A DNA stretch of 40,289 nt from Candidatus Thorarchaeota archaeon. Lineage in GTDB: Archaea; Asgardarchaeota; Thorarchaeia; Thorarchaeales; Thorarchaeaceae. The translations under genes and the position numbers were made by a program. Position 1 is the first letter of the stretch, and the number at the start of each line of letters is the position of its first letter. The stretch spans positions 1 to 40,289 of the forward strand of contig JBHLRZ010000029.1 in NCBI GenBank assembly GCA_048882045.1, written 5' to 3'. Below are positions 19,828 to 40,224 of this stretch, piece after piece. The notes below the pieces were generated by a model that did not search any database, was not told the DNA's origin, and saw only the letters and a program-made list of their open reading frames with translations.

Positions 19828-19873
19828 TGTGGAGTTCTTTAATGGTTATCAGAACGCATTCTTGGTTGTGTGC

Positions 19874-20371
19874 ATGGAATTTCAAAAGAATAGTGAGCCT
19901 CTTGATGAGGACATGGTCCATTGGACCTCGATATCCGAGCTGACAGTGGAATCACGTTCAGTAAATGTGAGATTCAAAGTTATTGAAGTCGAAGAGCTCA
20001 GGAGTGTGAGCACTCGAAGCACAGGCCGCTCTCATCAAGTTACAAACTGTGTTGTAGGAGATGAATCGGCAGTGATCATTCTAACTCTCTGGAACTGCGA
20101 CATAGATGAAATAGAAATCGGGAAGAATTTCGAACTTGTAAATGGATATATCAACGTCTATGATGAGTGTATGCATCTCGGAAAAGGAAGATGGGGAGAG
20201 TTTAGAGAAACAGACTCAGATATTAGCTACGTCAATAGGGCTCTCGACATGAGCAGACCATTCATGGGTAGACCAAAACGACGCACACGTAAGAGATCTC
20301 TTACTGGACGAACATTCAGTGGTACAGCAGGTAGAGAATCGAGAGGATACGCCTCACGGAAGGGCTTTTGA
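19874..20371 (+). CDS. Single OB-fold single-stranded DNA-binding protein (crenarchaeal SSB/RPA-like) with basic tail
   Basis: ISEL..ESRSVNVRFKVIEV, VVGDESAVIILTLWN, ELVNGYINVY, HLGKGRWG; ATG at 19874 preferred over GTG 19829. Confidence 0.85.
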   Translation: MEFQKNSEPLDEDMVHWTSISELTVESRSVNVRFKVIEVEELRSVSTRSTGRSHQVTNCVVGDESAVIILTLWNCDIDEIEIGKNFELVNGYINVYDECMHLGKGRWGEFRETDSDISYVNRALDMSRPFMGRPKRRTRKRSLTGRTFSGTAGRESRGYASRKGF

Positions 20372-20396
20372 GGTGGTGTGGACATCTCTCTGCTAG

Positions 20397-21290: not shown

Positions 21291-21302
21291 GAGGGAATCA
21301 AT

Positions 21303-22685: not shown

Positions 22686-22686
22686 G

Positions 22687-22720
22687 AAAAAAAGAGAGAG
22701 CCGCTGTCGAAACAGCGGCT
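22687..22720 (-). terminator. Perfect hairpin with downstream U-tract terminating trpB2 (possibly bidirectional)
   Basis: agccgctgt[cgaa]acagcggct at 22699-22720 (9-bp stem; minus-strand loop UUCG) with A7 at 22687-22693, located between convergent acdA and trpB2. Confidence 0.75.
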
Positions 22721-22727
22721 AGGAACT

Positions 22728-24089: not shown

Positions 24090-24246
24090 TTCTTTTACTC
24101 CGTGTTCTTACTCGCTTCTGGGAAGTGGTGTCTCTGCTGAGCTGTCAAAGTTATGACATGGAGAGAGATTTCAAGAAGTGGACTGACTTGATCAGCTCTC
24201 AGAGAAGAAGTTACAGAAACACAGAACGCAGAATTTGGCGAACTGA

Positions 24247-24300
24247 CTAGACGGGCCGCGAAGGACCCAAAAGCCATTGGCCAAGGCACGCTCGTGTCAT
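24247..24300 (-). other. Candidate leader peptide (uORF) of trpB2: MTRACLGQWLLGPSRPV*
   Basis: ATG at 24300 preceded by GGTGA-aaac; one Trp codon; TAG at 24247-24249; followed by a 157-nt spacer to trpB2 with a pyrimidine-rich first half. Confidence 0.4.
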
Positions 24301-24560
24301 GTTTTCACCGTCAGAAACGATTACCGTCGTGGTACACAGTGTTCTTATAAGGATTGCGCATAAATGTACCATACTGTACGAAAATGTACAATGGACGAGA
24401 AATCAAAAAACATGTATCTACCGCATGCTTTTTGAATGAAATTTCTCGGGAATCAATCGAGTCACGCAACATTCCAAGACTACACTTCAACAATTCTGTT
24501 GTTTTGAATTCACAAATACGCGTACTCATTATTCCAACACACAGAGTAGATGATGCAGCA

Positions 24561-26516
24561 ATGCCTAGTGATGAGCTTGACATTTCTCTATTGAAGAAAA
24601 TGTTTGATACTTCTCTTCAGGGAGTCTTTGTCGTGCACAATCGGAAAATCATCTACGTGAACGATACTCTTTGCGAATCAATTGGTTTTGAAATAGAAGA
24701 TTGCCAAGGAGACAGGTTGCAAACCCTTACTGCAATATTGGCGCCAGGATTTACTGAGGAGGCAGTTGAAAGTTATCGGAAGATGGCTTCAGGAGAAACC
24801 GAATCATCTCATGGTAGGCACGAGTTCATAGGAACTGATGGTCAGAAGCGATTCTTGGACACGATTTCAAACAGAGTCACAATTGGGAATGAGGAGTATA
24901 TCATCGTTTTCAGTGTTGATGCAACTGCAGATCAGATTTTGAAGGAAACATTGGCAACTGAGAGGAAGGTCTATAGTATAATTGCAGAAGCGGCGTTGAG
25001 CAATGAAGAAATTGACCAGCTCTGCGACAGAATCCTTTCTGGTCTCGTGAGTACTTTAGGTTTTGATCTTGGTACAATAAGACTGTATGACGAAACTGAT
25101 CAGATGCTTTATCTAAAAGCCTCGGTAGGAATCGAAGAGGGTGTTACTCCGAAGGCGGTCCACAAGGATGATCCCGATTTCCTAGTTGCGCGTACAGCTA
25201 GAACTCTTTCGCCTCTGTTCACATCCGATATCGAACAATCCCCTGAGAGCCAAGACCGAATGGCTCGAGCAAGAGAACTGAAGGTTCGCTCTCTCATTTT
25301 CTGGCCAATCGTTGGTACTGAACATGATCTTCTCGGTGTCATCAACATTGCCGCACACGAGGCAAAAGATCTTGGACCGGAAGACAGGACTGTTTTCGCT
25401 ACAATAGCTGGAATGTTTTCCACAATTCTTGAACGTCGTTATACTGAACAAGAGCTCCAAGACAGTCAGGACAGATTTGTTGCTTTTGCTGACAACATGC
25501 CAGGACCAGTATATATCAAGGATGACCAGTCAAAGGTTCTTTTCATAAACAGATACATGCGAGATATTTCCAGGATGCCTGCACGGGAGGATTGGGAGGG
25601 AAAGAGTAACATTGACCTCTGGCGATCTGATAGGGCTAAGGAACTGACAGAAGAAGACCAGCGTGTTCTGAGAGAGGGGCCAATTGAAAGAGCTCAGGAA
25701 ACTATCCAGGACGGAAAAGTCAGGACTTTCAGGACCCATAAGTTTCCAATCTTTCGTGAAGGAAAACCACCTCTGATCGGCGGATTCTCACTGGACATCA
25801 CTGAGCAGATTGAAGCTCAGAAACAGCGAGAGGAAGCGAGAGCAAGAGCTGAATTCTTTAACGACTTAATGGCACATGACCTGAATAACATGCATCAAGG
25901 AATCATGTCAAGTCTGGAACTCATCCTGGCTGACAAGGGTCTATCTGATCAACAAAGAAAGATGGCAGAGAATGCACTCAGACAGGTAAACAGAAGTGTA
26001 TCACTCATAAACAATGTCAAGAAATTCTCCATGGTAAACCAAGAGAACTTGGTTCTTGAGAAGACTGACCCAGGAGAGGCACTCATCACAGCGATTCAAA
26101 TTGTGAATCAGACTTTTCCAGATAGAAAACTAGTAATTGAAACGAATCTCTCCATCGGAACCTATTGCATAATGGCAAATGAATTCTTAGAGGATGTATT
26201 CTACAACCTTCTCCATAATGCAGTGAAATTCACAGAATCCGAAGAGGTTCGGCTAAAGGTGACATCCTCACTGACAGAAGAGGGAGAGTTCCTCAAGATT
26301 GATTTTGAAGACTGGGGAACAGGGATTGAAGACAGACTAAAGGAGAGCATCCTATCAGGTATAGATGAGAGGGTGCTCAGGGTCTCTGGAGTTGGTCTGA
26401 CACTTGTCAAACAGATTGTAGACCAGTATAACGGAAGCATAGTAATAGAGGACAGGGTAGAAGGAGAACATACTCAGGGTGCAAAGGTTGTAGTCCTGTT
26501 ACCAAACGGTTGTTAG
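24561..26516 (+). CDS. Cytoplasmic PAS-GAF-PAS sensor histidine kinase
   Basis: PAS (MFDTSLQGVFVV..IIYVN), GAF, second PAS (FADNMPGPVYIKD), H-box LMAHDLNN, N-box VFYNLLHNAVK, G1 DWGTGI, G2 SGVGL; ATG 24561 preferred over TTG 24354. Confidence 0.93.
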   Translation: MPSDELDISLLKKMFDTSLQGVFVVHNRKIIYVNDTLCESIGFEIEDCQGDRLQTLTAILAPGFTEEAVESYRKMASGETESSHGRHEFIGTDGQKRFLDTISNRVTIGNEEYIIVFSVDATADQILKETLATERKVYSIIAEAALSNEEIDQLCDRILSGLVSTLGFDLGTIRLYDETDQMLYLKASVGIEEGVTPKAVHKDDPDFLVARTARTLSPLFTSDIEQSPESQDRMARARELKVRSLIFWPIVGTEHDLLGVINIAAHEAKDLGPEDRTVFATIAGMFSTILERRYTEQELQDSQDRFVAFADNMPGPVYIKDDQSKVLFINRYMRDISRMPAREDWEGKSNIDLWRSDRAKELTEEDQRVLREGPIERAQETIQDGKVRTFRTHKFPIFREGKPPLIGGFSLDITEQIEAQKQREEARARAEFFNDLMAHDLNNMHQGIMSSLELILADKGLSDQQRKMAENALRQVNRSVSLINNVKKFSMVNQENLVLEKTDPGEALITAIQIVNQTFPDRKLVIETNLSIGTYCIMANEFLEDVFYNLLHNAVKFTESEEVRLKVTSSLTEEGEFLKIDFEDWGTGIEDRLKESILSGIDERVLRVSGVGLTLVKQIVDQYNGSIVIEDRVEGEHTQGAKVVVLLPNGC

Positions 26517-26610
26517 GCCTACTAGAACCCTTTATCTTGCCGTCACCACTTTTCCCAGAATGGTTAAATTATCCAAAACAGATACTGGAAAACTGCAGGA
26601 AGGGTAAAAT

Positions 26611-27168
26611 GTGGAGCATTACGGTCCAAGCTACGTTCTAAAAATGGTTGCACTTGGAGACGGGGCCGTAGGTAAAACAAGCTGTATCATGCGCTACACA
26701 GAAGACAGTTTTGGTGAAAACTACAAGGCCACCATAGGGACCAACATAGCTGTGAAGAACGTGAAGGTCGAGTTGGTTGAGGGAGAGCCAAAGACTGCTC
26801 AGGTCGTCCTCTGGGATTTAGCAGGTCAACCAACATACAGAGACCTACGCTCAAGGTACATGGTCGGTTCTTCAGCCGCGTTTCTAGTCTATGATGTCAC
26901 GAGAGCCCCCACTTTTCTCAATGTTGCAGAATGGTACAACACGTTTGTCCAAGTGGCTCCTGATGCAAGCGTCGTTCTTGTAGCAAACAAGGTGGACCGT
27001 GAAGACAGGATTGTTCCACCTGAAGCAGGTGAGATGGTCAGTCGTTGGCTCGGTATCGAATGCATAGAAACCTCTGCAAAGACCGGAGAGAATGTCGAGT
27101 CAATGTTCACCAAGTGTGTCGAAACAGCCATTCGAATTGAAGAGAAACGAACTTCTCTTAAGATGTAG
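26611..27168 (+). CDS. Rab/Ras-like small GTPase (eukaryotic signature protein)
   Basis: G1 GDGAVGKT, G2 ATIG, G3 LWDLAGQ, LVYDVT, G4 NKVD, G5 ETSAK; no C-terminal prenylation Cys motif. Confidence 0.93.
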   Translation: MEHYGPSYVLKMVALGDGAVGKTSCIMRYTEDSFGENYKATIGTNIAVKNVKVELVEGEPKTAQVVLWDLAGQPTYRDLRSRYMVGSSAAFLVYDVTRAPTFLNVAEWYNTFVQVAPDASVVLVANKVDREDRIVPPEAGEMVSRWLGIECIETSAKTGENVESMFTKCVETAIRIEEKRTSLKM

Positions 27169-27184
27169 CTGCGCTCAATTCGAA

Positions 27185-28720
27185 CTATGGTACTGGTGGG
27201 ATTGCTGCAAATGCATAGTTCGAGATAATCCATGGTGCAATGAACAATACAAAGACTGCAATAACACAGACTGTGACTGCAACCATTGGTATTGTTGGCA
27301 TCCTGATTGGACTATCATCAACAGGCTCAACCATGTATGTGTATCTCAAGACTCGCAGATAGTAACCCAGAGAGAAGACTGAGTTCAGAAGACCAATCAA
27401 TGCAAGCCACCACATTCCAGCGATAACAGCACTCGCGAAGAGCCACAGCTTGGACCAGAAACCGACTGTAAGAGGCATGCCTGCGAGTGACAACATCAGT
27501 ATAGCAAATGAAGCTGCTACTATAGGTGACCTTTTGCTCAATCCAGCCAAGTCATCATAGGTTATTCTCTTTGCTAGTTGAATCGATAATGCCCACACAA
27601 GTATGAATGCTGCTGTCTTCATGATTGCATGAGTAAAAGCCATGAACAATGCTGATCCAACACCCCATGTGTATGCTTGTAGTGACACAGCAGGATCCGT
27701 TGCAGCACTGATTCCTATGAAGAGATAGCCCATCATCGCGATTGACGAGTAAGCCAGCATCCTCATGATGTCTTTCTGAGCGAGCGCGAGGATATTTCCT
27801 ATGATCATGGTCAGTATTGCCACACCAGCAATAAGGAACATCCACTCTGTCTGTGCAGCCACAAATCCAACAATGAGGATTCTCATCAGAGCTCCAACAC
27901 CTGTCTTCTTCGATCCGCCAGCTAGATAGGCAGTAACACTACCATCTGCACTTGCATAGGCGTCTGGTACCCATTGCCACCCTGGAAAAACTCCCACTTT
28001 GAATCCAAATGAAGCTATGAACAGGATAACTGCGAGGATCATTGTGTAAGCAGCATTTGGCATTGTGGCAGACATGTTCCAGATGTTGGCTACTTCAGCG
28101 GCAACTTCAGAGATCACAGTGGTTCCAGTGACTCCATAGACTAGGGCAATCCCAAAGATCATCAACATGGTTGCTAGAAGACCCATGACAAAGTACTTTG
28201 TCGCTCCGTCAACAGCCTCTCGACCTGGACCCAGAGCAACGAGGATATACGTTGGAGTAGACATCACTTCCCAGCCAATGAAAAGTCCCACGAAATCGAC
28301 TGCCATCACAACCCACATCGCACCGGCAAAGGAAATCAGCAACATGAAGTTGTATGGACCCTTGTCCCCACCATAGAGCGTTGAGGACATCAGCACCAAG
28401 AAACCAACCAGGATGATGATATAGATAAAGAAGTCAGCCATGGGGTCTCGTACAAACTGCATGTTGGTTGTGTCTATAGTAGCTATAAGTGGGTCTAAAG
28501 CAACCATCTCAACAGCAGCCAGTGCAAGTCCTAGGAAACTGACGCCAAGAGGATTGTATCTCATTCCAACAATGAGAGCTAGAATCCCGAACAGGATGAG
28601 CGTTATTGATGGAAGTGACATTATCATGGTGTCTGTCAGTGGTAGAGTTCCTAGAAAGTTCGTGAAAGGCGCAAATAGAGCCTGTATGAAATCTGCAAAT
28701 GGTCCAAGTTGTAACATCAT
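27185..28720 (-). CDS. nuoN: Complex I-like antiporter subunit N
   Basis: FIGWEVMS, ATKYFVMG, GFKVGVFP..WVPDAY, GGSKK, RMLAYSSIAMMGY, SLAGMPLTVGFWSK, SLGYYLR. Confidence 0.9.
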   Translation of the reverse strand: MMLQLGPFADFIQALFAPFTNFLGTLPLTDTMIMSLPSITLILFGILALIVGMRYNPLGVSFLGLALAAVEMVALDPLIATIDTTNMQFVRDPMADFFIYIIILVGFLVLMSSTLYGGDKGPYNFMLLISFAGAMWVVMAVDFVGLFIGWEVMSTPTYILVALGPGREAVDGATKYFVMGLLATMLMIFGIALVYGVTGTTVISEVAAEVANIWNMSATMPNAAYTMILAVILFIASFGFKVGVFPGWQWVPDAYASADGSVTAYLAGGSKKTGVGALMRILIVGFVAAQTEWMFLIAGVAILTMIIGNILALAQKDIMRMLAYSSIAMMGYLFIGISAATDPAVSLQAYTWGVGSALFMAFTHAIMKTAAFILVWALSIQLAKRITYDDLAGLSKRSPIVAASFAILMLSLAGMPLTVGFWSKLWLFASAVIAGMWWLALIGLLNSVFSLGYYLRVLRYTYMVEPVDDSPIRMPTIPMVAVTVCVIAVFVLFIAPWIISNYAFAAIPPVP

Positions 28721-30297
28721 GGAACACCTCCGAGTATGAAGGCAACGATTGTTTCTGTGAAGCCAAGGACAAGATCTGGCCAGACACCCAAAAGGATGAC
28801 TGGAATCATCATCAGTATTGGAGCAATGAGGTCACTCCATGGTGCCTCGGTTACTTCTTTCTCAGGGTCGGGATCACTGAACACAATGCGATTCAACATC
28901 CAGAGAATGTAGCCCACTGTGATGAAGATTCCAAACGTGATGATACCTGCCCAGAGGTAGACGACCACTGAACCAAAAAGGACCAGTGCCTCTGCTATGA
29001 ATCCGCTGAAGCCGGGTAGGCCAAACGCAGCGAATGCAGCGAGTATAAGGACTGCTGACATCCTTGGAGCTTTTGTCATGAGACCCTGGATATCAGGGAG
29101 CTCTCTTGTGCCTGCTGTGTACTTCAGCTGTCCAGCCATGATAAACATCACTGAGATGATTGTGCCGTGACTGAACATCATGAATATCGAGCCTTGAATT
29201 GCTAGATGTGATGCTGCAACAATATTGGGATATAGAACAGGATCCAACCCGATTCCAACTGAACCTACCGCAACCCCAAGAAGTACCCAAGACATATGAT
29301 TGATTGAAGTGTACGCAACGAGACTTTTCAGGTCTGTCTGGGCCATTGCTGTAAAAGCTGCATAGATGCATGTGAAGATGGCTAGGGCGGCAAATGGGAT
29401 GCTCAGCCGGGCAAAGGAGTCTGGAATCAACCATAGTCCTAGACGGATGAAGGTATATCCGCCCATTTTCAGCAGGATACCTGCGAGTATCACAGACCCT
29501 GGCGTAGGAGCCTTTACATGAGCCCATGGAAGCCAGTTGTGCAGCGGAAACACAGGGAGCTTGACTCCAGCCCCCATGAATATGCCTAATGTAAAGCCAA
29601 TCTGTATCATCGGAGCTAGTGTTGGAATAGAATCTCTGAGGGCAATCATGCTGAATGTGTATGTCCCTGTTGATTCTCCTGCAAAGAGGTAAATCATGAA
29701 GAAGGCAACCAACATGACTGCTGAACCAAGATGGGTATAGATGAAGAACTTGACAGCAGCATGCTCACATCCTTCCTCACCCCATCGACCGATAATGAAG
29801 AACATCGGTATCAAGACCAGCTCCCAGAAAATGAAGAAACCGATCAAATCGAGTGACATGAAGACACCCATGAGGCCTGTCTGCAATAGAAGGAACAGCG
29901 AGTAATAGAGACCCTCTGATTTGTGAATGTGGTTTGAACTCAAGGCTGCGATGAAGACCACGAGATTGGACAGGAGTATCATTATGACAGAAAGACCGTC
30001 TACTCCTAGTGTGAACTGAAATACAGTATCACCTACTCCGATTGGAATCGTTGCTATGACAAAGTCTCTGAGGAAGTTCATTCCAGCATCAGTCGGGAAT
30101 AGACTGACATTGATCCCAAGAACCAAGATTACAGACAGACCCAATTCTAAGAAGGTCACAAGCAGTGTGATTGCTCTCGCACCCTTCCCTCCAGCAAAAT
30201 ACGCGATGAGCGCAGCTACCAGTGGCAGGATGAGCATGAATGCAAGTGGTCCGAAGGGTAATTGTGACAATAGGTTAACAGCGAAGTCCATCTGCAT
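28717..30297 (-). CDS. nuoM: Complex I-like antiporter subunit M (canonical)
   Basis: LGVDGLS, FFIFWELVLIPMF, AAVKFFIYT, VKLPVFPLHNWLP.AH..APT.GSVILAGILLKMGGY, AYTSINHM, GLPGFSGFIAE. Confidence 0.92.
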   Translation of the reverse strand: MQMDFAVNLLSQLPFGPLAFMLILPLVAALIAYFAGGKGARAITLLVTFLELGLSVILVLGINVSLFPTDAGMNFLRDFVIATIPIGVGDTVFQFTLGVDGLSVIMILLSNLVVFIAALSSNHIHKSEGLYYSLFLLLQTGLMGVFMSLDLIGFFIFWELVLIPMFFIIGRWGEEGCEHAAVKFFIYTHLGSAVMLVAFFMIYLFAGESTGTYTFSMIALRDSIPTLAPMIQIGFTLGIFMGAGVKLPVFPLHNWLPWAHVKAPTPGSVILAGILLKMGGYTFIRLGLWLIPDSFARLSIPFAALAIFTCIYAAFTAMAQTDLKSLVAYTSINHMSWVLLGVAVGSVGIGLDPVLYPNIVAASHLAIQGSIFMMFSHGTIISVMFIMAGQLKYTAGTRELPDIQGLMTKAPRMSAVLILAAFAAFGLPGFSGFIAEALVLFGSVVVYLWAGIITFGIFITVGYILWMLNRIVFSDPDPEKEVTEAPWSDLIAPILMMIPVILLGVWPDLVLGFTETIVAFILGGVP

Positions 30298-30298
30298 C

Positions 30299-32605
30299 TT
30301 ATATCACTCCTAATGCGATCAATGAGAGTATAATGAGTATTCCAATTCCGAACATCACAACACTGACATAGTCGTTGACTCTTCCAGTCTGGGTCTCTGA
30401 TAGACCAGCTTCAGAAGCGCGGACACTCCGAGTTGAGATTCCCTCGGCGAAACCATCGACTATGTTGTCGTCAACCCATCGTACTTTAGTTGAGATGGCA
30501 ACAGCAGCATCTGCTGACTTGAAGTCAATGCCATCGATTATCTTGTCGTCTACTCTGTACTTGTACCACTCAGCAAACCGTAGGAACCTTCTGAGGAACC
30601 AATGATAACCTTCGTTGATGTACCATCGATGTTTGAGGAAGTTGTAGATCCTTCGACGAATACCTGTTTCACCAACAAAGGTGTTCGGTTTGTCAGAATT
30701 TTTGATGTACATCCAGTAGCCAGGAACTCCACCCGCTAGAAGAGCCAATATCGTAATGGCAAAGGGTGGGAAGCCATCTGGGCTAAACTTGACAGTAAGC
30801 ATGTGAACGATGATGTATTCATATGAGTGAGTGTCGTTGATTGCTATCTGCTGGATGACTGGGAATATCAGGAATGCAAAAAATGTGAATACCACTAGTA
30901 GATACAATGGTATCATCATTGCCGGGCCTGGATCGTGAGGAGTCTGATGATGGTCATCATGGTGTTCCTCCATATCATGGTGCACCTCTTCATCATGGTG
31001 TTCCTCCTCATCGTGTGACTCGGACTCATACTCTTCATGGGATTCATGTGAGCCACCATTGGAGGGACCATAGAATGTGATGCCCATCAGCCTGAGGCTA
31101 TAGAATATGGTACAGGCAGCTGCGAGTATAGCAAAGAAGAACAGCAACCAACCAATAGGGTTAACCCAGTTAGCTGCGAGTTCGTAGGTATATTCTATAA
31201 TCGAGTCCTTGGACCAGAAACCTGAGAAGGGAGGGATACCAGCCAGTGCTAAAACACCAACCCACATGACAGCCCAAGTCTTCCTCATGTGCTTTTTGAG
31301 ACCGCCCATCTTCGAGATGTACTTCGTATGTACCGCATGTATCACTCCACCGGAAGCAAGGAACAGGAGCGCCTTGAAAGCACCGTGTGCAACTACATGC
31401 ATGACACTACTCAGGTATGCATGGTCATAGCCCAGATGGTTGACCTCCATGAGACCTCCAACTCCGAGTGCCAAGATCATGTAACCGAGCTGTGATAGTG
31501 TCGAGAAGGCAAGAATCTGCTTGAGCTCGTTGGACACCATTCCCATAGTTGCAGTCATGATGGCTGTGAAACCACCAATGATCGCCACAATGATGAAGAA
31601 CGTGAATGCAGCCTCGAAACCAACGAGCTGCGCAGCGCTGAATCCATGTTCTCCCCCTTCACCACCAGTTGCGCCTGACGCGCTAAGCATGGTCAGCAGG
31701 AACCTTGCAGTAATGTAGACTCCAGCCTTGACCATGGTTGCGGCGTGAATCAGAGCTGAAACGCTTGTCGGACCTGCCATAGCTTCAGGCAACCAGACCT
31801 GAAGGGGAGCCTGACCAGACTTACCAATAGCACCCATGAATATCAGGATGAACACTGGAACAAGTAGACCAAATCCGGCCATAAGACCCCACCAGTCATT
31901 ACTGTTCTGTGCGATACCTGTAAGGCTGGTTGTACCCAGGGTTGTACTCTCGAACATGAAGGTTCCAGTGAAGACGAAGAGGAGTAAGATTCCTCCAAGC
32001 ATGAATGCGTCTCCAATCCTGGTGACGATGAACGCCTTGGTTCCGCAGTAGCTGTTGTACGCTCCTTCAGTCTTGAAGCGAAGTAGCGGATTCTTTTGTT
32101 CGTATCCTGTGGGATCTTCCTCAGGTGGATTCCTCTTGTCGTTCCAGAATCCAATCAGACCATAGCTGCAGAAGCCCATAATCTCCCAGCCAATAAAGCC
32201 GATCAGCAAGTTGTTGCTGAGGACAAGAGTGAGCATACCACCACCAAAGGCTAGCATCAGGAAGAAGAACCGACTGCGGTCTTCCTCATGTGCCATATAC
32301 TCAGTCGAGTAGACATAGATCAGGAAACATAAGGTGCTGGCAAGTATAGCCATTATGACTGACAGCGAGTCCAAGAGAATACCAAATGGTACTTCGAGCA
32401 CTCCGGGAATGTTGATCCAAATCCAAGTAGGATTGCCATGGCCAATGTCAGGAAGTAATGACCAACAGAATATCATAGTGATACCCATGAAGATAGCTGG
32501 AAGCCAATCCCTGAGACGAGCACTGTATCTACCTGCAAGAGGTACTAGTAGTGAACCGCCTAGGGGAATGATAAGGATGATATATTCTGGTAGACCGAAC
32601 AGCAT
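30299..32605 (-). CDS. nuoL: Complex I-like antiporter subunit L with extended lateral helix
   Basis: GWEIMGFCSYGLIGFW, KAFIVTRIGD, GKSGQAPLQVWLPEAMAGPTSVSALIHAATMV, HGAFKALLFL, GFWSKD, C-terminal QTGRVNDY. Confidence 0.93.
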   Translation of the reverse strand: MLFGLPEYIILIIPLGGSLLVPLAGRYSARLRDWLPAIFMGITMIFCWSLLPDIGHGNPTWIWINIPGVLEVPFGILLDSLSVIMAILASTLCFLIYVYSTEYMAHEEDRSRFFFLMLAFGGGMLTLVLSNNLLIGFIGWEIMGFCSYGLIGFWNDKRNPPEEDPTGYEQKNPLLRFKTEGAYNSYCGTKAFIVTRIGDAFMLGGILLLFVFTGTFMFESTTLGTTSLTGIAQNSNDWWGLMAGFGLLVPVFILIFMGAIGKSGQAPLQVWLPEAMAGPTSVSALIHAATMVKAGVYITARFLLTMLSASGATGGEGGEHGFSAAQLVGFEAAFTFFIIVAIIGGFTAIMTATMGMVSNELKQILAFSTLSQLGYMILALGVGGLMEVNHLGYDHAYLSSVMHVVAHGAFKALLFLASGGVIHAVHTKYISKMGGLKKHMRKTWAVMWVGVLALAGIPPFSGFWSKDSIIEYTYELAANWVNPIGWLLFFFAILAAACTIFYSLRLMGITFYGPSNGGSHESHEEYESESHDEEEHHDEEVHHDMEEHHDDHHQTPHDPGPAMMIPLYLLVVFTFFAFLIFPVIQQIAINDTHSYEYIIVHMLTVKFSPDGFPPFAITILALLAGGVPGYWMYIKNSDKPNTFVGETGIRRRIYNFLKHRWYINEGYHWFLRRFLRFAEWYKYRVDDKIIDGIDFKSADAAVAISTKVRWVDDNIVDGFAEGISTRSVRASEAGLSETQTGRVNDYVSVVMFGIGILIILSLIALGVI
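30452..30553 (-). repeat. 78-nt (26-codon) period tandem duplication in the nuoL lateral-helix region
   Basis: accatcgactatgttgtcgtcaac (30452-30475) vs gccatcgattatcttgtcgtctac (30530-30553), 20/24 identical; they encode VDDNIVDG and VDDKIIDG. Confidence 0.85.
30954..31007 (-). repeat. 3 x 18-nt tandem repeat in the His/acidic loop of NuoL
   Basis: tcatcatggtgttcctcc / atatcatggtgcacctct / tcatcatggtgttcctcc, encoding EEHHDE-EVHHDM-EEHHDD. Confidence 0.8.
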
Positions 32606-32616
32606 CTTGAATCACC

Positions 32617-34158
32617 TCATGGATAGAGTCCTATTCCGTTGACCGCCGGGACGATGACATCTAGTGCCAGTCCTGGGAATATTCCAAAGATTACAATGAG
32701 AATCCCGAGGATGATCATCGGAATGGTCATCGACCGAGAGGATTCTTTGACATTCTCCAGCTCCTCAGGATGAGGACCTAGGAAAACCTTCCAGAAGAAT
32801 CGTAACATGTATCCTGCACTCAGGATCGAGCTAGAGACTGCAAGGATTGAGAGGATGAGGAAGGGTAAATCAGTGCCTACAATAAGCAGAGATCCATCAT
32901 AGATGAAAGCGTGATCGAATCCGCCCAAGAACATCATCCACTCACTAGCAAATCCAGAGAGAGGAGGACTTCCTGCGATACTCATCATCCCAATTGCCGC
33001 AGCAAACGCTGTGATGGGCATCTTGTTCGAGAGACCTCCCATTTGAGATATGTCCCTCAGTCCAGTCTGATGGATGACAGCTCCAGCTGTCATAAACAAG
33101 AGACCCTTGGAGAAGGCATGATTGATCAGATGGAACATACCACCTGCGACACCATTTATTGTGAACACACCCAAAGCAAATAGCACGTAACCCATCTGGC
33201 TGACAGATGAGTAGGCCAGAAGTCTCTTGATGTCCCTCTGAGCCAAGGCCATGAAACCACCGTAGAACATGGTGATGACTCCGAGAGCAGCGAGCCCGAT
33301 TGCTAGTGCATCAGCGGCAGCATTCAGCGTGATGGTGCCAAAACGAACCAGAGCATAAGCACCTGTCTCAATCATAGCTCCAGACAAGAGTACCGAGATT
33401 GGAGTCGGAGCCTCAGCGTGAACAGGTGGTAGCCACCAATGAATCGGAAACACTGCCATCTTGACTAAGAACCCAGCTCCGAGAAGTATGAAGACAACCT
33501 TCAGTAAGGTGAGAACTTCTGCACTAGGAGCCACAAATGCTGCTCCGATGTTGGCTAGTACAAAGGAACCTGTCAAGGAATACATGATACCGAATCCAAC
33601 CAGAATAAGTACTGCTCCTGACTGGGTATATAGCCAGAACTTCATGGCTGTCCGTTTTCGAGTTTCAGGGAGTCCCCAGAAGAGAATCAAAAAGTAGCTC
33701 GGAACTAGCATCAATTCCCAAGCGATGAAAAATTCGATCACATTTGTTGCCATGGTCACCCATTGCATACCCATTATGAAGAAGAGTGTGTTAGCAAAGA
33801 AGGTGGGCCTGTTCTCAGAGTGCTCTGTATAGCCGACTGCATAGACTACTGAGAGAAATCCTAAGACAACTATTGCAAATGTGATTGGGAACGCTATTCC
33901 ATCCAGCAAGAGTCCAAATGGTTCCAGTAGTATAGACCAGACTGCATACTCAGTATATTCATACCCTGGACCACCTGTGAGTACCTTGTAGAAGGGATAG
34001 ACCATCAGGAGCATTGCAAAGAATGAGATACCCACTGCTACTTTACCAGCTGACTTTTCGAATGATCCCTTGAAGACATAGATGAGAAGACCACCAATGA
34101 ACAGCACAAAAAGAGATAGTGCTGCGAACGGGATGTTTTCAAGTGCTAGTATCTGCAT
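32617..34158 (-). CDS. Additional (fourth) antiporter-like subunit, NuoM/MrpD-like ('M2')
   Basis: FFIAWELMLVPSYFLI, AMKFWLYT, VKMAVFPIHWWLP.VHAEAPTPISVLLSG, DIKRLLAYSSVSQMGY, NHAFSKGLLF, AGSPPLSGFASE. Confidence 0.9.
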   Translation of the reverse strand: MQILALENIPFAALSLFVLFIGGLLIYVFKGSFEKSAGKVAVGISFFAMLLMVYPFYKVLTGGPGYEYTEYAVWSILLEPFGLLLDGIAFPITFAIVVLGFLSVVYAVGYTEHSENRPTFFANTLFFIMGMQWVTMATNVIEFFIAWELMLVPSYFLILFWGLPETRKRTAMKFWLYTQSGAVLILVGFGIMYSLTGSFVLANIGAAFVAPSAEVLTLLKVVFILLGAGFLVKMAVFPIHWWLPPVHAEAPTPISVLLSGAMIETGAYALVRFGTITLNAAADALAIGLAALGVITMFYGGFMALAQRDIKRLLAYSSVSQMGYVLFALGVFTINGVAGGMFHLINHAFSKGLLFMTAGAVIHQTGLRDISQMGGLSNKMPITAFAAAIGMMSIAGSPPLSGFASEWMMFLGGFDHAFIYDGSLLIVGTDLPFLILSILAVSSSILSAGYMLRFFWKVFLGPHPEELENVKESSRSMTIPMIILGILIVIFGIFPGLALDVIVPAVNGIGLYP

Positions 34159-34590
34159 CTAACGGGTCCTCCTTCCTCTCCACTCTAGTGGGTCTCTGTC
34201 GAGTGTTTCAATCTTGTCAGGTCCATATATCAGATCTTCACGGTCACCCTCACTAAGGTCAACAACAGGAGTGTGAAAGAGGGCATCAAACCTACAGGCT
34301 TGGACGCACAGACCACAGAAGATACAGCGTGTGTAGTCAAAGTATAGTGCTGCATCCTTCTCAAACATCTGGTCTTCCTTGTCTATCCGGATAGCCACGA
34401 CTGGACAGATTCGGACACATTGTGCACAAGCAGTGCATTTCTCTCGTACGTGTATATGTCTTCCACGAGTTCTCTCAGGATAGATCCTGTCCTCGAATGG
34501 AAAGAAGTAGGTGAATGGTCTCATGAATACCTGTCTGAAGGTGTGTTTCATGATTTTGTAAATATCGCCGAGAACACTGAAGAATCCCAT
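34159..34590 (-). CDS. nuoI: Complex I-like 2x[4Fe-4S] subunit I
   Basis: YPERTRG, CTACAQCVRICP and CIFCGLCVQACR. Confidence 0.92.
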   Translation of the reverse strand: MGFFSVLGDIYKIMKHTFRQVFMRPFTYFFPFEDRIYPERTRGRHIHVREKCTACAQCVRICPVVAIRIDKEDQMFEKDAALYFDYTRCIFCGLCVQACRFDALFHTPVVDLSEGDREDLIYGPDKIETLDRDPLEWRGRRTR

Positions 34591-34593
34591 TGT

Positions 34594-35760
34594 TTACCCG
34601 CCTCCTAAAAGTGGTATCATCAGTCCTGGCAGGTATACAATCGCCAGCATGATGAGTATGACGTTCAGTATTGCAAGTGGCATAAGATACCTCCAGCAGT
34701 AACGGACAATCTGGTCCTGTCTCAACCTCTGGAACGAGGAGCTCACCAGCACGAAGAAGAAGAACGTGACGATGAACTTGATTATGAAATTCACAGGGCC
34801 AGGAAGGAATGGCAGTCCATTAGGTCCTCCAAGGAAGAGGGCCACAATGAGTGCTGAGTAGAGCATCTGTTCTGCAAATTCTGCAAAATAGGTGAGCGTG
34901 AAATAGATACCAGTATATTCCGTCCTCCAACCAAAGATGATCTCTGAGTCAGCAACTGGAGCATCGAAGGGAAATATCCCCACAGAAGCTATTGCAGCAA
35001 CCAAGAAAGTAACTAGGTTGATCGGTAATAGTATACCAAACCAGACATTTGTCTGTGCCATAGTGATTTGGAAGACACTCAATGACTGAGCCAGAAAAGC
35101 AACACCAATGGTCGAGATGATCATTGGGATTTCAGCAGCAAACTGATTATTCGCCGCTCTGAAACCACCAATCAAGGTGTACTTCGAACCACTGACCCAG
35201 CCAGCAAGTAGAGCTACTACTGGAACTGCTGTAAGAAACGCAAACACAAGTACAAGACTGACTGACAGATCTGAAATTGCCCAACCGCCATCAACTGCTG
35301 AGGTAGTATCCCATGGAATGAAAGCAAAGGGTAGTAAAACTACGACGAGAAGAAGGCCAGGAAGGAATCTGAACATCCATCTCTTTGCGTTGTCAGGAAT
35401 GATGGTTTCTTTTGCTATCAGTTTGATAGCATCAGCGAACAGCTGTAAACCACCATACTTGCCCATATGTTGCGGACCACGTCTGTCCTGAATTCGGCCC
35501 CATAATTTTCTGGTCCCCCAGACGGCCCAAATCAGGGCAAGGACTACGAAGATTAGACCGGGGAATAGTACAGCTCTAAACAGGAAGAAGAACACATCAG
35601 GATTGAAAATCAATCCCCATGCCCAAGTGAAGACACCCCAAATCCACATGAAGATTCCAAAGATAATATCGTAAATGATATTGAGCACGTGCCAAATCCA
35701 TGCAGGAATTCCTTGCAACCATTGCCAGAAGTCGAACTGTAGTAGTATACCCGCGTTCAT
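34594..35760 (-). CDS. nuoH: Complex I-like membrane subunit H with Trp-rich N-terminal extension
   Basis: GRIQDRRGP, GLQLFADAIKLIAKE, SKYTLIGGFR, PFDAP..DSE..G..TEY.G, RLRQDQ...CWRYLMPL. Confidence 0.92.
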   Translation of the reverse strand: MNAGILLQFDFWQWLQGIPAWIWHVLNIIYDIIFGIFMWIWGVFTWAWGLIFNPDVFFFLFRAVLFPGLIFVVLALIWAVWGTRKLWGRIQDRRGPQHMGKYGGLQLFADAIKLIAKETIIPDNAKRWMFRFLPGLLLVVVLLPFAFIPWDTTSAVDGGWAISDLSVSLVLVFAFLTAVPVVALLAGWVSGSKYTLIGGFRAANNQFAAEIPMIISTIGVAFLAQSLSVFQITMAQTNVWFGILLPINLVTFLVAAIASVGIFPFDAPVADSEIIFGWRTEYTGIYFTLTYFAEFAEQMLYSALIVALFLGGPNGLPFLPGPVNFIIKFIVTFFFFVLVSSSFQRLRQDQIVRYCWRYLMPLAILNVILIMLAIVYLPGLMIPLLGGG

Positions 35761-36896
35761 CTATCCCACCATCCTGGATAGGGGTCAAGACTTCCAAATA
35801 TTACAATAAAGTCCGCAAACTTCGAACCTGGGACCAGGTCCTTCAATGCATAGTAGGATGCTATGCACGGTCCGCGAATCTTTGCTCGATATGCAGTCTG
35901 TGCCTTGTCGAGAGTCTTTAGCCAAAGTGAAGTGATACCCCTTGTACCTTCAATTCGAGCATAGGCCTCTCCTTCAGGCAGACGGTTTGCCTTAGCGCGA
36001 GCCTTTGGATCAATTATAGGTCCAGACTCTGGAAGCTGAGGTAATAATTGTTTGACAATCTCCACAGCGGTCTCTGCTTCTTTGAACCGCTGTTCCATGC
36101 GATCAAGAGCATCACTCTGTCCCGGATGCTCCGGATTCTCTGTGATTGGAACCTCCCAATCAACCATATCATACGCTAGGTTTGGATCAGGGTCATCTTT
36201 TCTCAAGTCCATAGGTACACCACATGCCTTGATCGGGGGACCACTGAGACCCCATTTCAGACCCTGTTTGTAATCATATAGACCAATGTCTTTTGTTCTC
36301 GCCCTGAAAGTAGGACTTCCCATTTGCATGTCTCTGAACTTTGGAAGTCGGTCCTCAAAGCGATCGATAGCACGGTGAAGCCTATTCATGAACTTGTCTG
36401 TGAAATCGTACTTTACACCACCAGGCGTGGAGTATGAAACAGTGTGACGGGATCCAGTGAGCTCCTCGAAGACATCAAGCGAATACTCTCTGTCAACCCA
36501 TGGCCAGAGTGCCATTGTGAAGAATCCGAGTTCAGCATTAAATTGGCCCCACCAAAATTGTATGCTGTGCATACGGGACATCTCCATCATGATGGTCCTC
36601 ATTATCTTTGCACGTTCAGGAACTTCAATCTCAGCAATCTTCTCAACTGCAGCAACATATGGATACTCAGCAAGGAATGCCTCAAGCATACACATCCTTT
36701 CCAAGACCAATGAACCCTGTCGAAAGTTCTTGAACTCAAGGACCTTTTCTGCAGACCTATGGAAGTAACCAGCGTTGGGGTCACATTCAACAACATAATC
36801 TCCAACCAAAGTCAACTTGGTCGCCCAACCGTGAGCTGAGACATGTTGCGGGCCAAACCAGATGTCCATAGATTCATCGAGGATGTCAGGACTCAC
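35757..36896 (-). CDS. nuoD: Complex I-like catalytic subunit D (non-[NiFe])
   Basis: FGPQHVSAHG, GYFHRSAEK, EVPERAK..R...EMSR..S, TGSR, PGGV, GLSGP, GEAYARIEGTRG, GSLD....DR; no CxxC pairs. Confidence 0.9.
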   Translation of the reverse strand: MSPDILDESMDIWFGPQHVSAHGWATKLTLVGDYVVECDPNAGYFHRSAEKVLEFKNFRQGSLVLERMCMLEAFLAEYPYVAAVEKIAEIEVPERAKIMRTIMMEMSRMHSIQFWWGQFNAELGFFTMALWPWVDREYSLDVFEELTGSRHTVSYSTPGGVKYDFTDKFMNRLHRAIDRFEDRLPKFRDMQMGSPTFRARTKDIGLYDYKQGLKWGLSGPPIKACGVPMDLRKDDPDPNLAYDMVDWEVPITENPEHPGQSDALDRMEQRFKEAETAVEIVKQLLPQLPESGPIIDPKARAKANRLPEGEAYARIEGTRGITSLWLKTLDKAQTAYRAKIRGPCIASYYALKDLVPGSKFADFIVIFGSLDPYPGWWDR

Positions 36897-37399
36897 TGGC
36901 TGTCACCTCCTTCTGGTTTGGGGCGTGGTTTTGGAGGAGCCATACCGGTATCATCTTCGCGACTCTGGTCTGGCTTGAACCGCTTACGCATTGGATATGC
37001 TCCATCAAGTTCGTCAGGGAGCAGAAATAGCCGAGGATCTGGATGATTCTTGAAATCGATACCAAACATCTCACGGACCTCTCGTTCATGCCATTCAAGC
37101 CCAGGAATGATGTCGCAGGAGCTTTCAATCTCAGGATTTTCTCCTTCAAGGAACACCCTTAGTTGGACCAGTGTCTTTGTGGCCCATGACCAGAAGAGGT
37201 AGATCAGATTATACTGGTCATTTTCAAGATCGATTCCAAAGACTGATTCAGGCATTGCATCTTCAAGTTCTTCTTCTATGATTGTGATGACATCACGAAT
37301 CTTCTCAGCAGGCACTATGAGCTCGATCTTGTTATCACCAAGAGGATTTGATGTCACTTCAGGTATCTTATTGATGACTGCTCTTCCAATCATAGACAT
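36893..37399 (-). CDS. nuoC: Complex I-like subunit C
   Basis: PGLEWHEREVREMFGIDFKNHPDPRLFLLP...YPMRK. Confidence 0.92.
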   Translation of the reverse strand: MSMIGRAVINKIPEVTSNPLGDNKIELIVPAEKIRDVITIIEEELEDAMPESVFGIDLENDQYNLIYLFWSWATKTLVQLRVFLEGENPEIESSCDIIPGLEWHEREVREMFGIDFKNHPDPRLFLLPDELDGAYPMRKRFKPDQSREDDTGMAPPKPRPKPEGGDSQ

Positions 37400-37711
37400 C
37401 TATGCAACCTCCCTATCGACCACTCTTCCTAGGTCAACTGAACCATAACGTCTGTTATACATCAGCATCAAGACAAGAGCCAAAGCGGTATGAGCAGCCG
37501 CCACTGAAATCACCAAGATAATCAACCCTTGGGCAGTCAGATTGAAAGTTGGACTATAGAGTGCAAATGCAACCAGCGCGATGTTGACGCCGTTCCCCAT
37601 TATTTCAGCACCTATTAGGATTCTAATGAGGTTCCGCTTGACCATCATTCCATATGCTCCTAGACCTATCAGTATGAATGCCACAACAAGATACCAAGAA
37701 AGTGGGACCAT
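37400..37711 (-). CDS. nuoK: Complex I-like subunit K
   Basis: 3 TMs, KRNLIRILIGAEIMGNG, SVAAAH.ALAL. Confidence 0.9.
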   Translation of the reverse strand: MVPLSWYLVVAFILIGLGAYGMMVKRNLIRILIGAEIMGNGVNIALVAFALYSPTFNLTAQGLIILVISVAAAHTALALVLMLMYNRRYGSVDLGRVVDREVA

Positions 37712-38376
37712 TATACATCCACCTCCTCAGGTTCTTCACCAGCATCTTCCTCATCAGCTGGTTCAGATTCTTGTTCTAGATCCGATTCCTCTGAATCAAC
37801 CTCAGCCTCGATGCCAAACTCACCTTGGATTGAACTGAGTTGTTCAGCCTTGTCCATCTTCAGAAGTGCTACAGCTCCAATTAAGGAAGTAATCATGATG
37901 ATGGCTATCATCTGTACTAGGAGGCCATTGTCAACCCATAGCCATTCCGCCAGTGCACCCAGGTCTTGAGAGAAGTCGACTACAACTTCATTGAATGACT
38001 CAGCCCATGGAAAAATGAGTGCAAGAATAGCTGAGAGAGTTGCTACGAGTCCGGCGAGTAGTTGTCCAGCCCTTCTCTTTCTCCCTGATGCAAACTCTTC
38101 AAGCGACGAGTCTTGAGCTCGAGGTAAGAGCAAGACACCAAATATGATGAGTGCGCTGATCCCTCCAGTGTATACTGCAATCTGCATTCCGGCAATGAAG
38201 GGAGCTTCAAGTAGTAGGAAGAACGCTGCCACAAACGAGGCCATAAAGCCAAAGAAGAAGGCAGCGTAAACGATTTCCTTATGTTCAAGTGCGAGATAGG
38301 CAAGAATAATGACAATCGCTGCAATCAGGATGAACTCCACTTGTTCAAATAATTGATAGACTGGATCTACCTGCAT
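37711..38376 (-). CDS. nuoJ: Complex I-like subunit J with acidic C-terminal tail
   Basis: LLLEAPFIAGMQIAVYTGGISALIIF, terminal TM SLIGAVAL. Confidence 0.9.
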   Translation of the reverse strand: MQVDPVYQLFEQVEFILIAAIVIILAYLALEHKEIVYAAFFFGFMASFVAAFFLLLEAPFIAGMQIAVYTGGISALIIFGVLLLPRAQDSSLEEFASGRKRRAGQLLAGLVATLSAILALIFPWAESFNEVVVDFSQDLGALAEWLWVDNGLLVQMIAIIMITSLIGAVALLKMDKAEQLSSIQGEFGIEAEVDSEESDLEQESEPADEEDAGEEPEEVDV

Positions 38377-38378
38377 CT

Positions 38379-38837
38379 TTAGTGACTCCCTGTGATTTCG
38401 TGTGATTTCTCTCGCTCAGCCTTTGCCTTGCGGTATTGCTCGAGAGTCTCTTTTCCATCCAAGGCTGCGTGTGGGAGCATCTTCATCACAAATCCGATAC
38501 CACCCATGACAATCAGAATGAATAGAATGACCTGCCACACCAACTCCTGTGGATTGGGGCCTGTTGGCCAAAGCAGTGCCGAAGAAGAAAGCAGCCATAG
38601 GAACGCGCCCATCACATCAACAACTACAAAGAGAACAGTATAGATGAAGTAGTTGTATGGATACGAGATTCTTGCAGGTCCAATTGGTTCCTCCCCGCAC
38701 TCATAGCTCGATGTTTTCTCTGAGTTCTGGAGGACGTGGGGTCGCAAGACCCAAGATGCGAGAAGCATCACCACGACCAACACCATTGCTAGTAGTGCCC
38801 ATACAATAACAGGTATGAAATCAATGAACAGCCTCAT
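38379..38837 (-). CDS. nuoA: Complex I-like subunit A
   Basis: EKTSSYECGEEP, YFIYTVLFVVVDV; ATG 38837 preferred, with GAGGA upstream. Confidence 0.9.
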   Translation of the reverse strand: MRLFIDFIPVIVWALLAMVLVVVMLLASWVLRPHVLQNSEKTSSYECGEEPIGPARISYPYNYFIYTVLFVVVDVMGAFLWLLSSSALLWPTGPNPQELVWQVILFILIVMGGIGFVMKMLPHAALDGKETLEQYRKAKAEREKSHEITGSH

Positions 38838-39182: not shown

Positions 39183-39569
39183 GTGATAGATTTGGTACGT
39201 GGCGAAGAAGGAACTTTCTTCTACTATCTAGGGCTCCTATTTGGGATGACTCTGGTTGGGTCTTACATCTGGCTCATCCTGAATGCAACAATCTGGAATG
39301 TTCTGCTTCATATGATTTTGGTCATGAGTGGAATAATCTTGGTCGCAGGTGCTCTCGGTTTTGCATCTGCCAAGACGAGATCGAGCCGTGTAGGATTGAC
39401 CATGCTCTCTGGAATAACTGGGGGGATTCATGCATACCTGATATTCTCATACTTGACATATCATCCATATGCCGAAACATATGATGTGATTGCAGCAATC
39501 GTTCTCTTTGCATGGATTGCATTTGGTACTCTAGTTGCCTTTGCCACGTTAAGTTGGCTACAGGAATAG
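39183..39569 (+). CDS. Small hypothetical membrane protein (4 TM)
   Basis: Four hydrophobic segments; start uncertain. Confidence 0.7.
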   Translation: MIDLVRGEEGTFFYYLGLLFGMTLVGSYIWLILNATIWNVLLHMILVMSGIILVAGALGFASAKTRSSRVGLTMLSGITGGIHAYLIFSYLTYHPYAETYDVIAAIVLFAWIAFGTLVAFATLSWLQE

Positions 39570-39606: not shown

Positions 39607-40224
39607 TTAATTTCCCTCGGATTTCAGCTCAGACTCTGTGTCAGTTGTCTCAGCTGTGTCCTCCGATGCAGATGCAGATTCTTCTGAAGCTGCCTCAGGT
39701 TCAGAAGTAGACTCAGCCGTAGGTTCTGGTTCTGGCTCGGGTTCTGGTTCAGGACCAAAGCGGAGTGTACTAGTGTCCATGATTCCAGGTGATGTGCTTT
39801 CTTCCCTGTTGTGCATTATAGCAAAGCCTGCTGCAGTAAGAATCGATCCACCCAAGCCCCATATGGAGTAGTAAAATCCAGAGTTATCCGGAGTCATAGC
39901 GAGAACAACATAGAGTGAATCTGTGAAGAAATATGTGAAGACGACAAAGAAGAACCCTAGTACGACTGCGATAGACATTGCAGTGTTCTTTGCCTTCCCT
40001 TTCTCAGGACGGAAGTAACCAATCAAGAAGAAGACTATGAGAACTGGTATGCCCCCAACGAACAGGAAGTACTGGGCGACCAGAATCCACGTGCTCGGAT
40101 ATGAAATTACTAGGAAGAGATAGTTGAATATGTATGCAGAGAGTACAACTAACCCTAGTAAAGTCAGGCAATACGGGTCGCTGTCCTGCCTCAGTATGTC
40201 AGAATCGTCTCCATGTAGGGTCAT
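39607..40224 (-). CDS. Hypothetical membrane protein (4 TM) with Pro-Glu repeat and acidic low-complexity tail
   Basis: Four TMs followed by GPEPEPEPEPEPTAESTSEPE...; start uncertain. Confidence 0.72.
   Translation of the reverse strand: MTLHGDDSDILRQDSDPYCLTLLGLVVLSAYIFNYLFLVISYPSTWILVAQYFLFVGGIPVLIVFFLIGYFRPEKGKAKNTAMSIAVVLGFFFVVFTYFFTDSLYVVLAMTPDNSGFYYSIWGLGGSILTAAGFAIMHNREESTSPGIMDTSTLRFGPEPEPEPEPEPTAESTSEPEAASEESASASEDTAETTDTESELKSEGN

Follow-up and report, generated by a model that had tools for sequence, protein, structure and literature searches.

The window analysed here, a stretch of 40,289 nt from a Candidatus Thorarchaeota genome (assembly GCA_048882045.1, contig JBHLRZ010000029.1), carries on its minus strand at 27185-38837 a cluster of eleven tightly packed open reading frames (ORFs) in the order nuoA-J-K-C-D-H-I-X-L-M-N (Table 1), and we hold it probable, at about 0.7, that this cluster belongs to a complex I-like oxidoreductase of the '2M' type, in which four pumps (X, NuoL, NuoM and NuoN) lie under a NuoL lateral helix (HL) lengthened by one 26-residue unit. 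The families of Pfam and NCBIfam assign the first seven products to NuoA, J, K, C, D, H and I and the last four, X, NuoL, NuoM and NuoN, to Proton_antipo_M (NuoD reaches 308 bits with the NF004739 NuoD model, under its 360-bit cut-off), and the junctions between the genes measure, from A to N in order, +2, -1, 0, -4, -4, +3, 0, +11, +1 and -4 nt. An initial annotation, made from the sequence alone, had described eleven genes with junctions of at most 11 nt and four antiporter-like subunits, and both the families and the coordinates agree with it. The cluster would extend to 38876 if nuoA were read from an upstream TTG at that position, giving a protein of 165 amino acids (aa), the orthologues having 142-157 aa. 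More than 25 Thorarchaeota metagenome-assembled genomes (MAGs), assembled independently of one another, have the identical gene order, and X, NuoL, NuoM and NuoN are the sole genes with a PF00361 match in this 3.6-Mb, 93%-complete genome.

A fourth antiporter-like subunit and a longer lateral helix

Two studies that cite the original description (PMC9040806; PMC6606698) define 2M complexes by an extra NuoM together with an insertion of ~26 aa in the lateral helix of NuoL. Both features are found in the present cluster, where a fourth M-class subunit stands beside a NuoL whose HL has a 26-residue insertion, in keeping with the 2M type to which the cluster had been assigned at the outset. The fourth subunit, X, scores 311 bits with the NDH_I_M model, over the 264-bit cut-off, and the HyfB, MrpA and NuoL models score only slightly lower. 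Moreover, all four pump subunits have a charged residue at every position tested in transmembrane helices (TM) 5, 7, 8 and 12: in X these are E148 (TM5), K233 (TM7), E264 (TM8) and E406 (TM12), with H347 in TM11; in NuoM E159, K246, K277, H377 and E436; and in NuoN E151, K241, K272 and K424. X thus has a Glu in TM8 where NuoM has a Lys, and a Glu in TM12 as in NuoM.

In 72 sequences the length of HL was taken as the distance between the W of RWY and the G of QTG. The span is 81 residues in the present NuoL and 79-82 in 33 of the 34 clusters with the X-L-M-N arrangement, the 34th carrying +52; it is 51-56 in E. coli and in 26 of 27 K-L-X-X clusters, and reaches 106-116 and 141 in one Asgard cluster and in some from Bathyarchaeia. 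In a MAFFT alignment of 29 NuoL sequences, every NuoL from an X-L-M-N cluster has 26-28 extra residues immediately before TM16, which are not found in E. coli NuoL or in most archaeal three-subunit clusters. Here the insert (residues 711-736, VDDNIVDG...) is a second copy of the unit at 685-710 (VDDKIIDG..., nt 30476-30553) exactly 26 residues downstream, the two units being identical at 8 of 26 aa and their motif at 20 of 24 nt, and the VDDxIxDG motif aligns, within one residue, with the position of the functionally important D563 of E. coli NuoL. At 1.5 Å a residue, 26 residues of helix come to ~39 Å, about the width of one antiporter-like subunit. In the AlphaFold2 (AF2) model of NuoL, with a predicted local distance difference test (pLDDT) score of 82, a continuous helix runs over residues 649-734 and TM16 over 745-764.

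In archaeal clusters as a whole, complex I-like ones and hydrogenases alike, HL changes in steps of ~26 residues, with lengths of about 55, 81, 106-116 and 141. The longer ones are seen at seven Bathyarchaeia loci (L070, L076, L078, L079, L085, L086 and L097) and at one locus, L039, of the Asgard genome G035; in some of the Bathyarchaeia clusters HL is longer by two or three units, and one cluster has two tandem NuoL genes, which hints at arms even longer than those of the 2M type. As a separate observation, NuoL has at residues ~515-555 (30941-31063, minus strand) a low-complexity loop rich in His, Asp and Glu after TM14, HESHEEYESESHDEEEHHDEEVHHDMEEHHDDHH, which varies in length among Thorarchaeota, does not occur in E. 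coli NuoL and is modelled at pLDDT below 50; it may be metal-binding or regulatory.

Origin and distribution of X

X was placed in a tree of 101 sequences (IQ-TREE quick search, with supports from the Shimodaira-Hasegawa-like approximate likelihood ratio test). The NuoM of the operon and that of E. coli share a clade (support 100), and the operon's NuoN goes with E. coli NuoN; X falls within the M superclade (99), outside the canonical NuoM clade (100), and groups with proteins that take the middle place in archaeal K-L-X2-X3 clusters. In these clusters the NuoD homologues keep the NiFe cysteines, so that the clusters are group 4 hydrogenases, a type that Valentin-Alvarado et al. (PMC11291895) described for Asgard archaea. 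From its place in the tree, X belongs to an archaeal M-like ('M*') lineage that also serves the membrane hydrogenases of Asgard archaea and Bathyarchaeia. Two other origins were tried and rejected, the constrained groups having in both cases been defined after the tree was seen: a duplicate of the NuoM in the same operon, for which joining the X and NuoM of Thorarchaeota costs 155 units of log-likelihood (p-AU 4e-50 in the approximately unbiased, AU, test), and one clade holding every X subunit, which costs 85 units.

A synteny survey, proposed along with the initial annotation, found the X-L-M-N arrangement across Thorarchaeota, in a sister family and in Ca. Heimdallarchaeum aukensis. The X subunits of these three, the sister family being of the same taxonomic order and represented by genome G025 (locus L069), form one clade (support 99), and in Ca. 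Heimdallarchaeum aukensis and the sister family the order is J-K-B-C-D-H-I-X-L-M-N, with a standalone NuoB. A second X-L-M-N group, made up of Bathyarchaeia and the Asgard genome G035, has its place in the tree among clusters with three subunits. With a single X clade rejected, the X-L-M-N design would either have arisen more than once or have been lost repeatedly. This agrees with what Chadwick, Hemp, Fischer and Orphan (2018, ISME J 12:2668) reportedly state in their abstract. The independent evolution that had been supposed for this cluster stands in part: X is not a duplicate of NuoM by the AU test and does not form one clade with the X of Bathyarchaeia, but the same architecture and order recur in Ca. 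Heimdallarchaeum aukensis and the sister family.

The X-L-M cluster at locus L104 (DATIYC010000126.1, titled Candidatus Acidiferrales bacterium) was not counted as a bacterial example. Its proteins are 76-91% identical to Bathyarchaeia-like ones, a search with its X protein gave close Bathyarchaeia-like matches only, and the contig, filed in an Acidobacteriota MAG, is probably archaeal DNA that was binned wrongly.

NuoB behind a scaffold gap and its fusion with a flavoprotein

A search of this genome's contigs with the PF01058 (NuoB) profile gave no match, whereas 24 of 24 genus-mates have one, mostly within a frame of 650-690 aa. The window covers positions 1-40289 of a scaffold (C29) of 43,105 nt, and is followed by 100 N at 40290-40389; this gap splits a gene for a fusion of an FAD (flavin adenine dinucleotide) oxidase with NuoB, and the apparent absence of NuoB is therefore an artefact of the window edge. 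In fact tblastn with the orthologue from a genus-mate (G002) places aa 1-381 of the fusion on C29:41531-40389 (86% identity) and aa 626-646 on 40289-40227. Moreover, Logan contigs from four DNA runs of two studies extend into the gap from both flanks: the end on one side translates as RAHLILQNKI / ILQNKIRAGT, the last helix of NuoB, and that on the other as RRFYMLSWS, belonging to the FAD-oxidase C domain. NuoB is encoded in this population and concealed by the assembly gap, and a genome without NuoB was ruled out as an assembly artefact from the tblastn matches, the N run and the Logan contig ends. All eleven core subunits of complex I (A-D and H-N) are hence present, ten in the cluster and NuoB in the fusion upstream. 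As first described, the cluster has neither NuoEFG nor FpoF; the further statement that no input module is present does not hold, as the window stops at the scaffold gap and the conserved fusion of an FAD dehydrogenase with NuoB lies directly upstream.

In G002 the fusion has 646 aa, lies 0.7 kb upstream of nuoA and is the sole PF01058 match of the genome; Pfam divides it into FAD_binding_4, FAD-oxidase_C and a C-terminal Oxidored_q6/NuoB part, which scores 176.6 bits against a cut-off of 116 bits and keeps all four cysteines of cluster N2 (GCC...GQC..GG...GCPP). The fusion is found in ~45 sequence clusters, 73-92% identical, of which those with names are nearly all from Thorarchaeota and whose current annotation is "NuoB" only. 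The next-best homologues are standalone flavoproteins of Thorarchaeota (54-56% identity), followed by bacterial fusions of FAD and Fe-S/CCG domains (34-40%), in which the Fe-S domain occupies the position of NuoB. The AF2 model of the fusion has a pLDDT of 81, with the FAD domain over 90 in most blocks of 10 residues, and in Foldseek it matches D-lactate dehydrogenase (mLDHD) with a TM-score of 0.86, normalised by target. The FAD-binding motifs are intact (PRGAGTSGYGG), the FAD domain matches LctD by sequence, and the GlcD equivalog model gives 147 bits against a 568-bit cut-off. We regard the FAD domain as a putative GlcD/D-LDH-like (D-lactate dehydrogenase-like) member of the VAO/PCMH superfamily.

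In another contig of this genome (C27, at 16316-29553 and 39558-40397) there are several paralogous genes of FAD-linked oxidases, with 27-36% identity to the FAD domain of the fusion, and the genome's single gene for a MenA-like prenyltransferase lies ~10 kb away.

Proposed working of the complex and alternative explanations

In the reading preferred here, X would have its place in the membrane arm, under the added unit of the helix, and with X there the ion/2e- ratio would rise by about one, that is, ~one more ion would be moved per two electrons than in canonical complex I, or one more would be needed in reverse. Electrons would come from ferredoxin by way of NuoI, an entry proposed for other relatives without NuoEFG, from a D-2-hydroxy acid at the fused FAD, or from both; entry at the fused flavin is suggested by analogy, because the closest homologues from outside Thorarchaeota have an Fe-S/CCG domain at the position of NuoB. 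They may then converge on cluster N2 and exit to a lipophilic carrier in the pocket of NuoB, NuoD and NuoH.

Several observations weigh against this reading. As to the arm, the membership of X in the complex is deduced from the way in which HL length varies together with the number of subunits, and the inserted HL unit is itself modelled at pLDDT 46-53. In some hydrogenase clusters of Bathyarchaeia, HL reaches 106-141 residues with 2-3 visible subunits. The initial annotation had set store by the extra subunit and the long NuoL going together in related operons, which they do in the 33 of 34 X-L-M-N clusters, though not at locus L096, where NuoL carries the +26 insert yet three subunits are in view. 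As to the redox site, NuoD keeps the His of its beta1-beta2 loop (GPQHVSAHG), but the quinone Tyr (E. coli RIEY) is replaced by Met (ERMCM), and the position is Phe, Leu or Ile in relatives, including those with standalone NuoB; the quinone-binding His and Tyr of NuoD correspond to H38 and Y87 of T. thermophilus Nqo4. A MenA-like prenyltransferase scores 126.5 bits, over the 102-bit cut-off, and none of MenB, MenD, MqnA/D and MqnC exceeds its cut-off in the 93%-complete genome; with only this one quinone gene and the Tyr lost, a quinone acceptor is therefore unproven. As to coupling, the first conserved Glu of NuoK is kept, and all Thorarchaeota sequences checked have a His in place of the second (E. 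coli E72), the position being Glu in the X-L-M-N clusters of Heimdallarchaeum, the sister family and Bathyarchaeia; in NuoA, D79 is kept and E81 is Met. With the His in NuoK and the Met in NuoA, the coupling channel is not of the canonical form. Moreover, an ORF on the opposite strand intervenes between nuoA and the fusion with its neighbour TM205, so that the fusion and TM205 on the one hand and nuoA-N on the other would not be one transcript and appear to be distinct transcription units. Finally, by an estimate from standard potentials, the step from D-lactate to menaquinone yields too little energy for five ions, and therefore the direction and the substrates are guesses.

Some of these points have been considered also in the light of a quinone-independent pump of five ions, in which the FAD on NuoB would replace the quinone as the terminal redox site. 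Electrons would then run forward from reduced ferredoxin through NuoI and N2 to the FAD and a 2-oxo acid, or an ion gradient would drive the oxidation of a 2-hydroxy acid uphill to ferredoxin. Besides the lost Tyr of NuoD and the failure to find a complete menaquinone pathway in the genome at 93% completeness, the joining of the flavoprotein to the N2 subunit itself speaks for such a pump, and so does the span of ~260 mV between ferredoxin and lactate/pyruvate (an estimate from standard potentials), which would suit about five ions if the membrane potential is low; moreover, for 2M complexes a reverse flow of electrons to ferredoxin has been put forward (PMC6606698). Nevertheless we consider it unlikely: the loss of the Tyr is older than the fusion, as standalone-NuoB relatives have Phe or Leu, while the kept loop His, the well conserved NuoH and the MenA-like gene point to a lipophilic carrier, and the known members of the family couple by the chemistry of the NuoB/D/H pocket and not through a peripheral flavin. 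If true, it would be a new route of energy conservation for supposedly fermentative Asgard archaea.

It is also conceivable that X is no fourth pump of the same complex, being either an isoform that swaps with NuoM, comparable with the NdhD/NdhF paralogues of cyanobacteria, or a separate cation/proton transporter that is co-transcribed. Its Glu264 in place of the TM8 Lys of NuoM, and the fact that X-type proteins are the middle subunit of three-subunit hydrogenase clusters, would suit either form of this idea, which we nonetheless find quite improbable in view of the extra HL unit that accompanies X-L-M-N (+26 in 33 clusters and +52 in the other). X also lies 0 and 11 nt from its neighbour genes, no MrpE/F/G-type partners are seen in the cluster and no further PF00361 gene in the genome, and X, L, M and N are all kept across Thorarchaeota, Heimdallarchaeum and the sister family.

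That the cluster encodes a group 4 membrane-bound [NiFe] hydrogenase is very improbable. NuoD does have a weak Pfam NiFeSe_Hases match (24 bits, under the cut-off), X and NuoL have relatives among the subunits of hydrogenase clusters in Asgard archaea, and Appler et al., in the part of the text available (10.1101/2024.07.04.601786), take the complexes of Heimdallarchaeia as hydrogenases. However, in the alignment only one of the four NiFe-ligating cysteines is left in NuoD (motifs ERMCMLE and GSLDPYPGWWDR), and the hydrogenase clusters have all four, in RICGICS and DPCxxC, so that this NuoD is not a hydrogenase subunit. The hydrogenase was rejected on the missing cysteine motifs, ERMCMLE and DPYPGWWDR standing here for the RICGICS and DPCxxC of true hydrogenases. 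Still less credible is an assembly chimera of two operons, a danger named at the outset, since despite the 100-N gap close by in the scaffold the same order recurs in more than 25 independent Thorarchaeota MAGs from different studies and the GC content is uniform across the region.

Neighbouring genes

Next to the fusion lies the gene of a conserved four-TM protein, here called TM205, with an acidic PEPEPE tail and the motifs DSDxYC, GYxRPxRGK and WGxGG, for which neither Pfam nor NCBIfam has a family. It is found in 21 of the 28 Thorarchaeota loci examined, downstream of the fusion where the fusion is within range; it was seen in Thorarchaeota loci only, and there is none at the standalone-NuoB loci L069 and L090. 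TM205 is a candidate accessory or anchor subunit. Between TM205 and nuoA, the opposite-strand ORF of 128 aa has no Pfam match, and an Rfam scan of this spacer found nothing. On the other side of the cluster, the Ras/Roc-family GTPase beside nuoN is an eukaryote-like signature gene typical of Asgard archaea.

Table 1. Genes and other features of the window.
Feature	Position	Strand	Description
Ras/Roc-family small GTPase	26611-27168	+	directly downstream of nuoN; same place in genus-mate G002
nuoN	27185..28720	-	511 aa, canonical; NuoN models 293 and 279 bits, under the 408- and 333-bit cut-offs
nuoM	28717..30297	-	526 aa, canonical; NDH_I_M 411 bits
nuoL	30299..32605	-	768 aa; PF00361 + PF00662; NDH_I_L 445 bits, over cut-off
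extra 26-residue HL unit in nuoL	30398..30475	-	NuoL residues 711-736, VDDNIVDG...; MAFFT alignment
X, fourth antiporter-like subunit	32617..34158	-	513 aa; PF00361, 241 bits
nuoI	34159..34590	-	143 aa; Fer4 families; two 4Fe-4S motifs, both Cys motifs present in alignment
nuoH	34594..35760	-	388 aa; PF00146, 285.5 bits
nuoD	35757..36896	-	379 aa; PF00346, 194 bits
nuoC	36893..37399	-	168 aa; PF00329, 97 bits
nuoK	37400..37711	-	103 aa; PF00420, 74.7 bits
nuoJ	37711..38376	-	221 aa; PF00499, 72.7 bits
nuoA	38379..38837	-	152 aa from ATG 38837; PF00507, 62 bits
conserved opposite-strand ORF	39183..39569	+	128 aa, ~4 TM; between TM205 and nuoA; 53% identity to G002 equivalent
TM205, conserved 4-TM protein	39607..40224	-	start overlaps fusion stop codon; 49% identity to G002 neighbour
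FAD-oxidase-NuoB fusion gene, last 21 codons	40227..40289	-	remainder across gap + C29:40389-41531

Novelty and significance

The four-pump design itself is not new, and reports of it go beyond the bacteria named in the initial annotation, since archaeal 2M complexes are already reported in PMC7300363, namely in Thaumarchaeota HMT, clade 2. What is new with respect to the searchable literature is the occurrence of the design across Thorarchaeota and in Heimdallarchaeum, the recruit from a hydrogenase-type M-like lineage, the relocation and fusion of nuoB, and the altered sites of NuoD and NuoK. In the searchable literature neither the four-pump complex nor the FAD-NuoB fusion is described for Asgard archaea, in line with what the initial annotation had supposed for the complex; there only Appler et al. 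mention Thorarchaeota together with NuoB, and the text available of that work describes neither feature.

Thorarchaeota are usually seen as fermenters or acetogens. A conserved and apparently intact four-pump complex with a fused flavin dehydrogenase suggests that they have chemiosmotic energy conservation or a reverse electron flow driven by an ion gradient, and the occurrence in Heimdallarchaeum shows that the layout with an extra pump is spread among Asgard archaea. For research on complex I, the cluster is a natural case in which an extra pump seems to have been recruited from a different subunit lineage, HL lengths go in steps of 26 residues and a substrate enzyme is hard-wired to N2; for annotation, it is a reminder that scaffold gaps can make an operon appear NuoB-less.

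Comparison with known systems

With the 2M complexes I of Chadwick et al. (2018), as described in citing papers, the present system shares an M-class fourth subunit within the nuo cluster, a NuoL HL insertion of ~26 residues and the absence of NuoEFG, and they too have been proposed to move more ions per electron or to run electrons in reverse. It differs in that X belongs to the archaeal M-like lineage shared with the group 4 hydrogenase clusters of Asgard archaea and Bathyarchaeia and is no copy of the neighbouring NuoM, in that nuoB lies outside the cluster, fused to a flavoprotein, with the order A-J-K-C-D-H-I-X-L-M-N, and in the replacement of the quinone Tyr of NuoD by Met and of E72 of NuoK by His. 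The cyanobacterial NDH-1 and the Fpo-like complex of Methanothrix, relatives of eleven subunits that lack NuoEFG and use ferredoxin, are similar in having the core A-D and H-N only, with a NuoI surface on which ferredoxin could dock and a NuoD that is not of the hydrogenase kind; however, they have three pumps, a standalone NuoB/NdhK and the quinone- or phenazine-binding Tyr, whereas the Thorarchaeota enzyme would have four pumps and a fused FAD domain.

Asgard archaea's [NiFe] hydrogenases of group 4 (PMC11291895; and the available text of 10.1101/2024.07.04.601786) have the closest relatives of the L and X-type subunits and likewise an archaeal NuoL with a full-length HL, but their K-L-X2-X3 arrangement comprises three pumps with a canonical HL of 55 residues and intact NiFe cysteines; compared with them, the Thorarchaeota cluster adds M and N of the canonical type, has a longer HL and lacks the NiFe site. 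As to the fusion, the D-LDH/GlcD fold is common to it and the D-2-hydroxy-acid dehydrogenases of the Dld-II/YdiJ type with FAD and Fe-S/CCG domains, as well as LctD of Ldh-EtfAB (PDB 7QH2); in the closest homologues from outside Thorarchaeota the FAD domain is succeeded by an Fe-S domain, and in the Thorarchaeota fusion NuoB takes that position. FpoF is functionally similar as an add-on input subunit, but it is a separate protein and its sequence is unrelated to the Thorarchaeota fusion.

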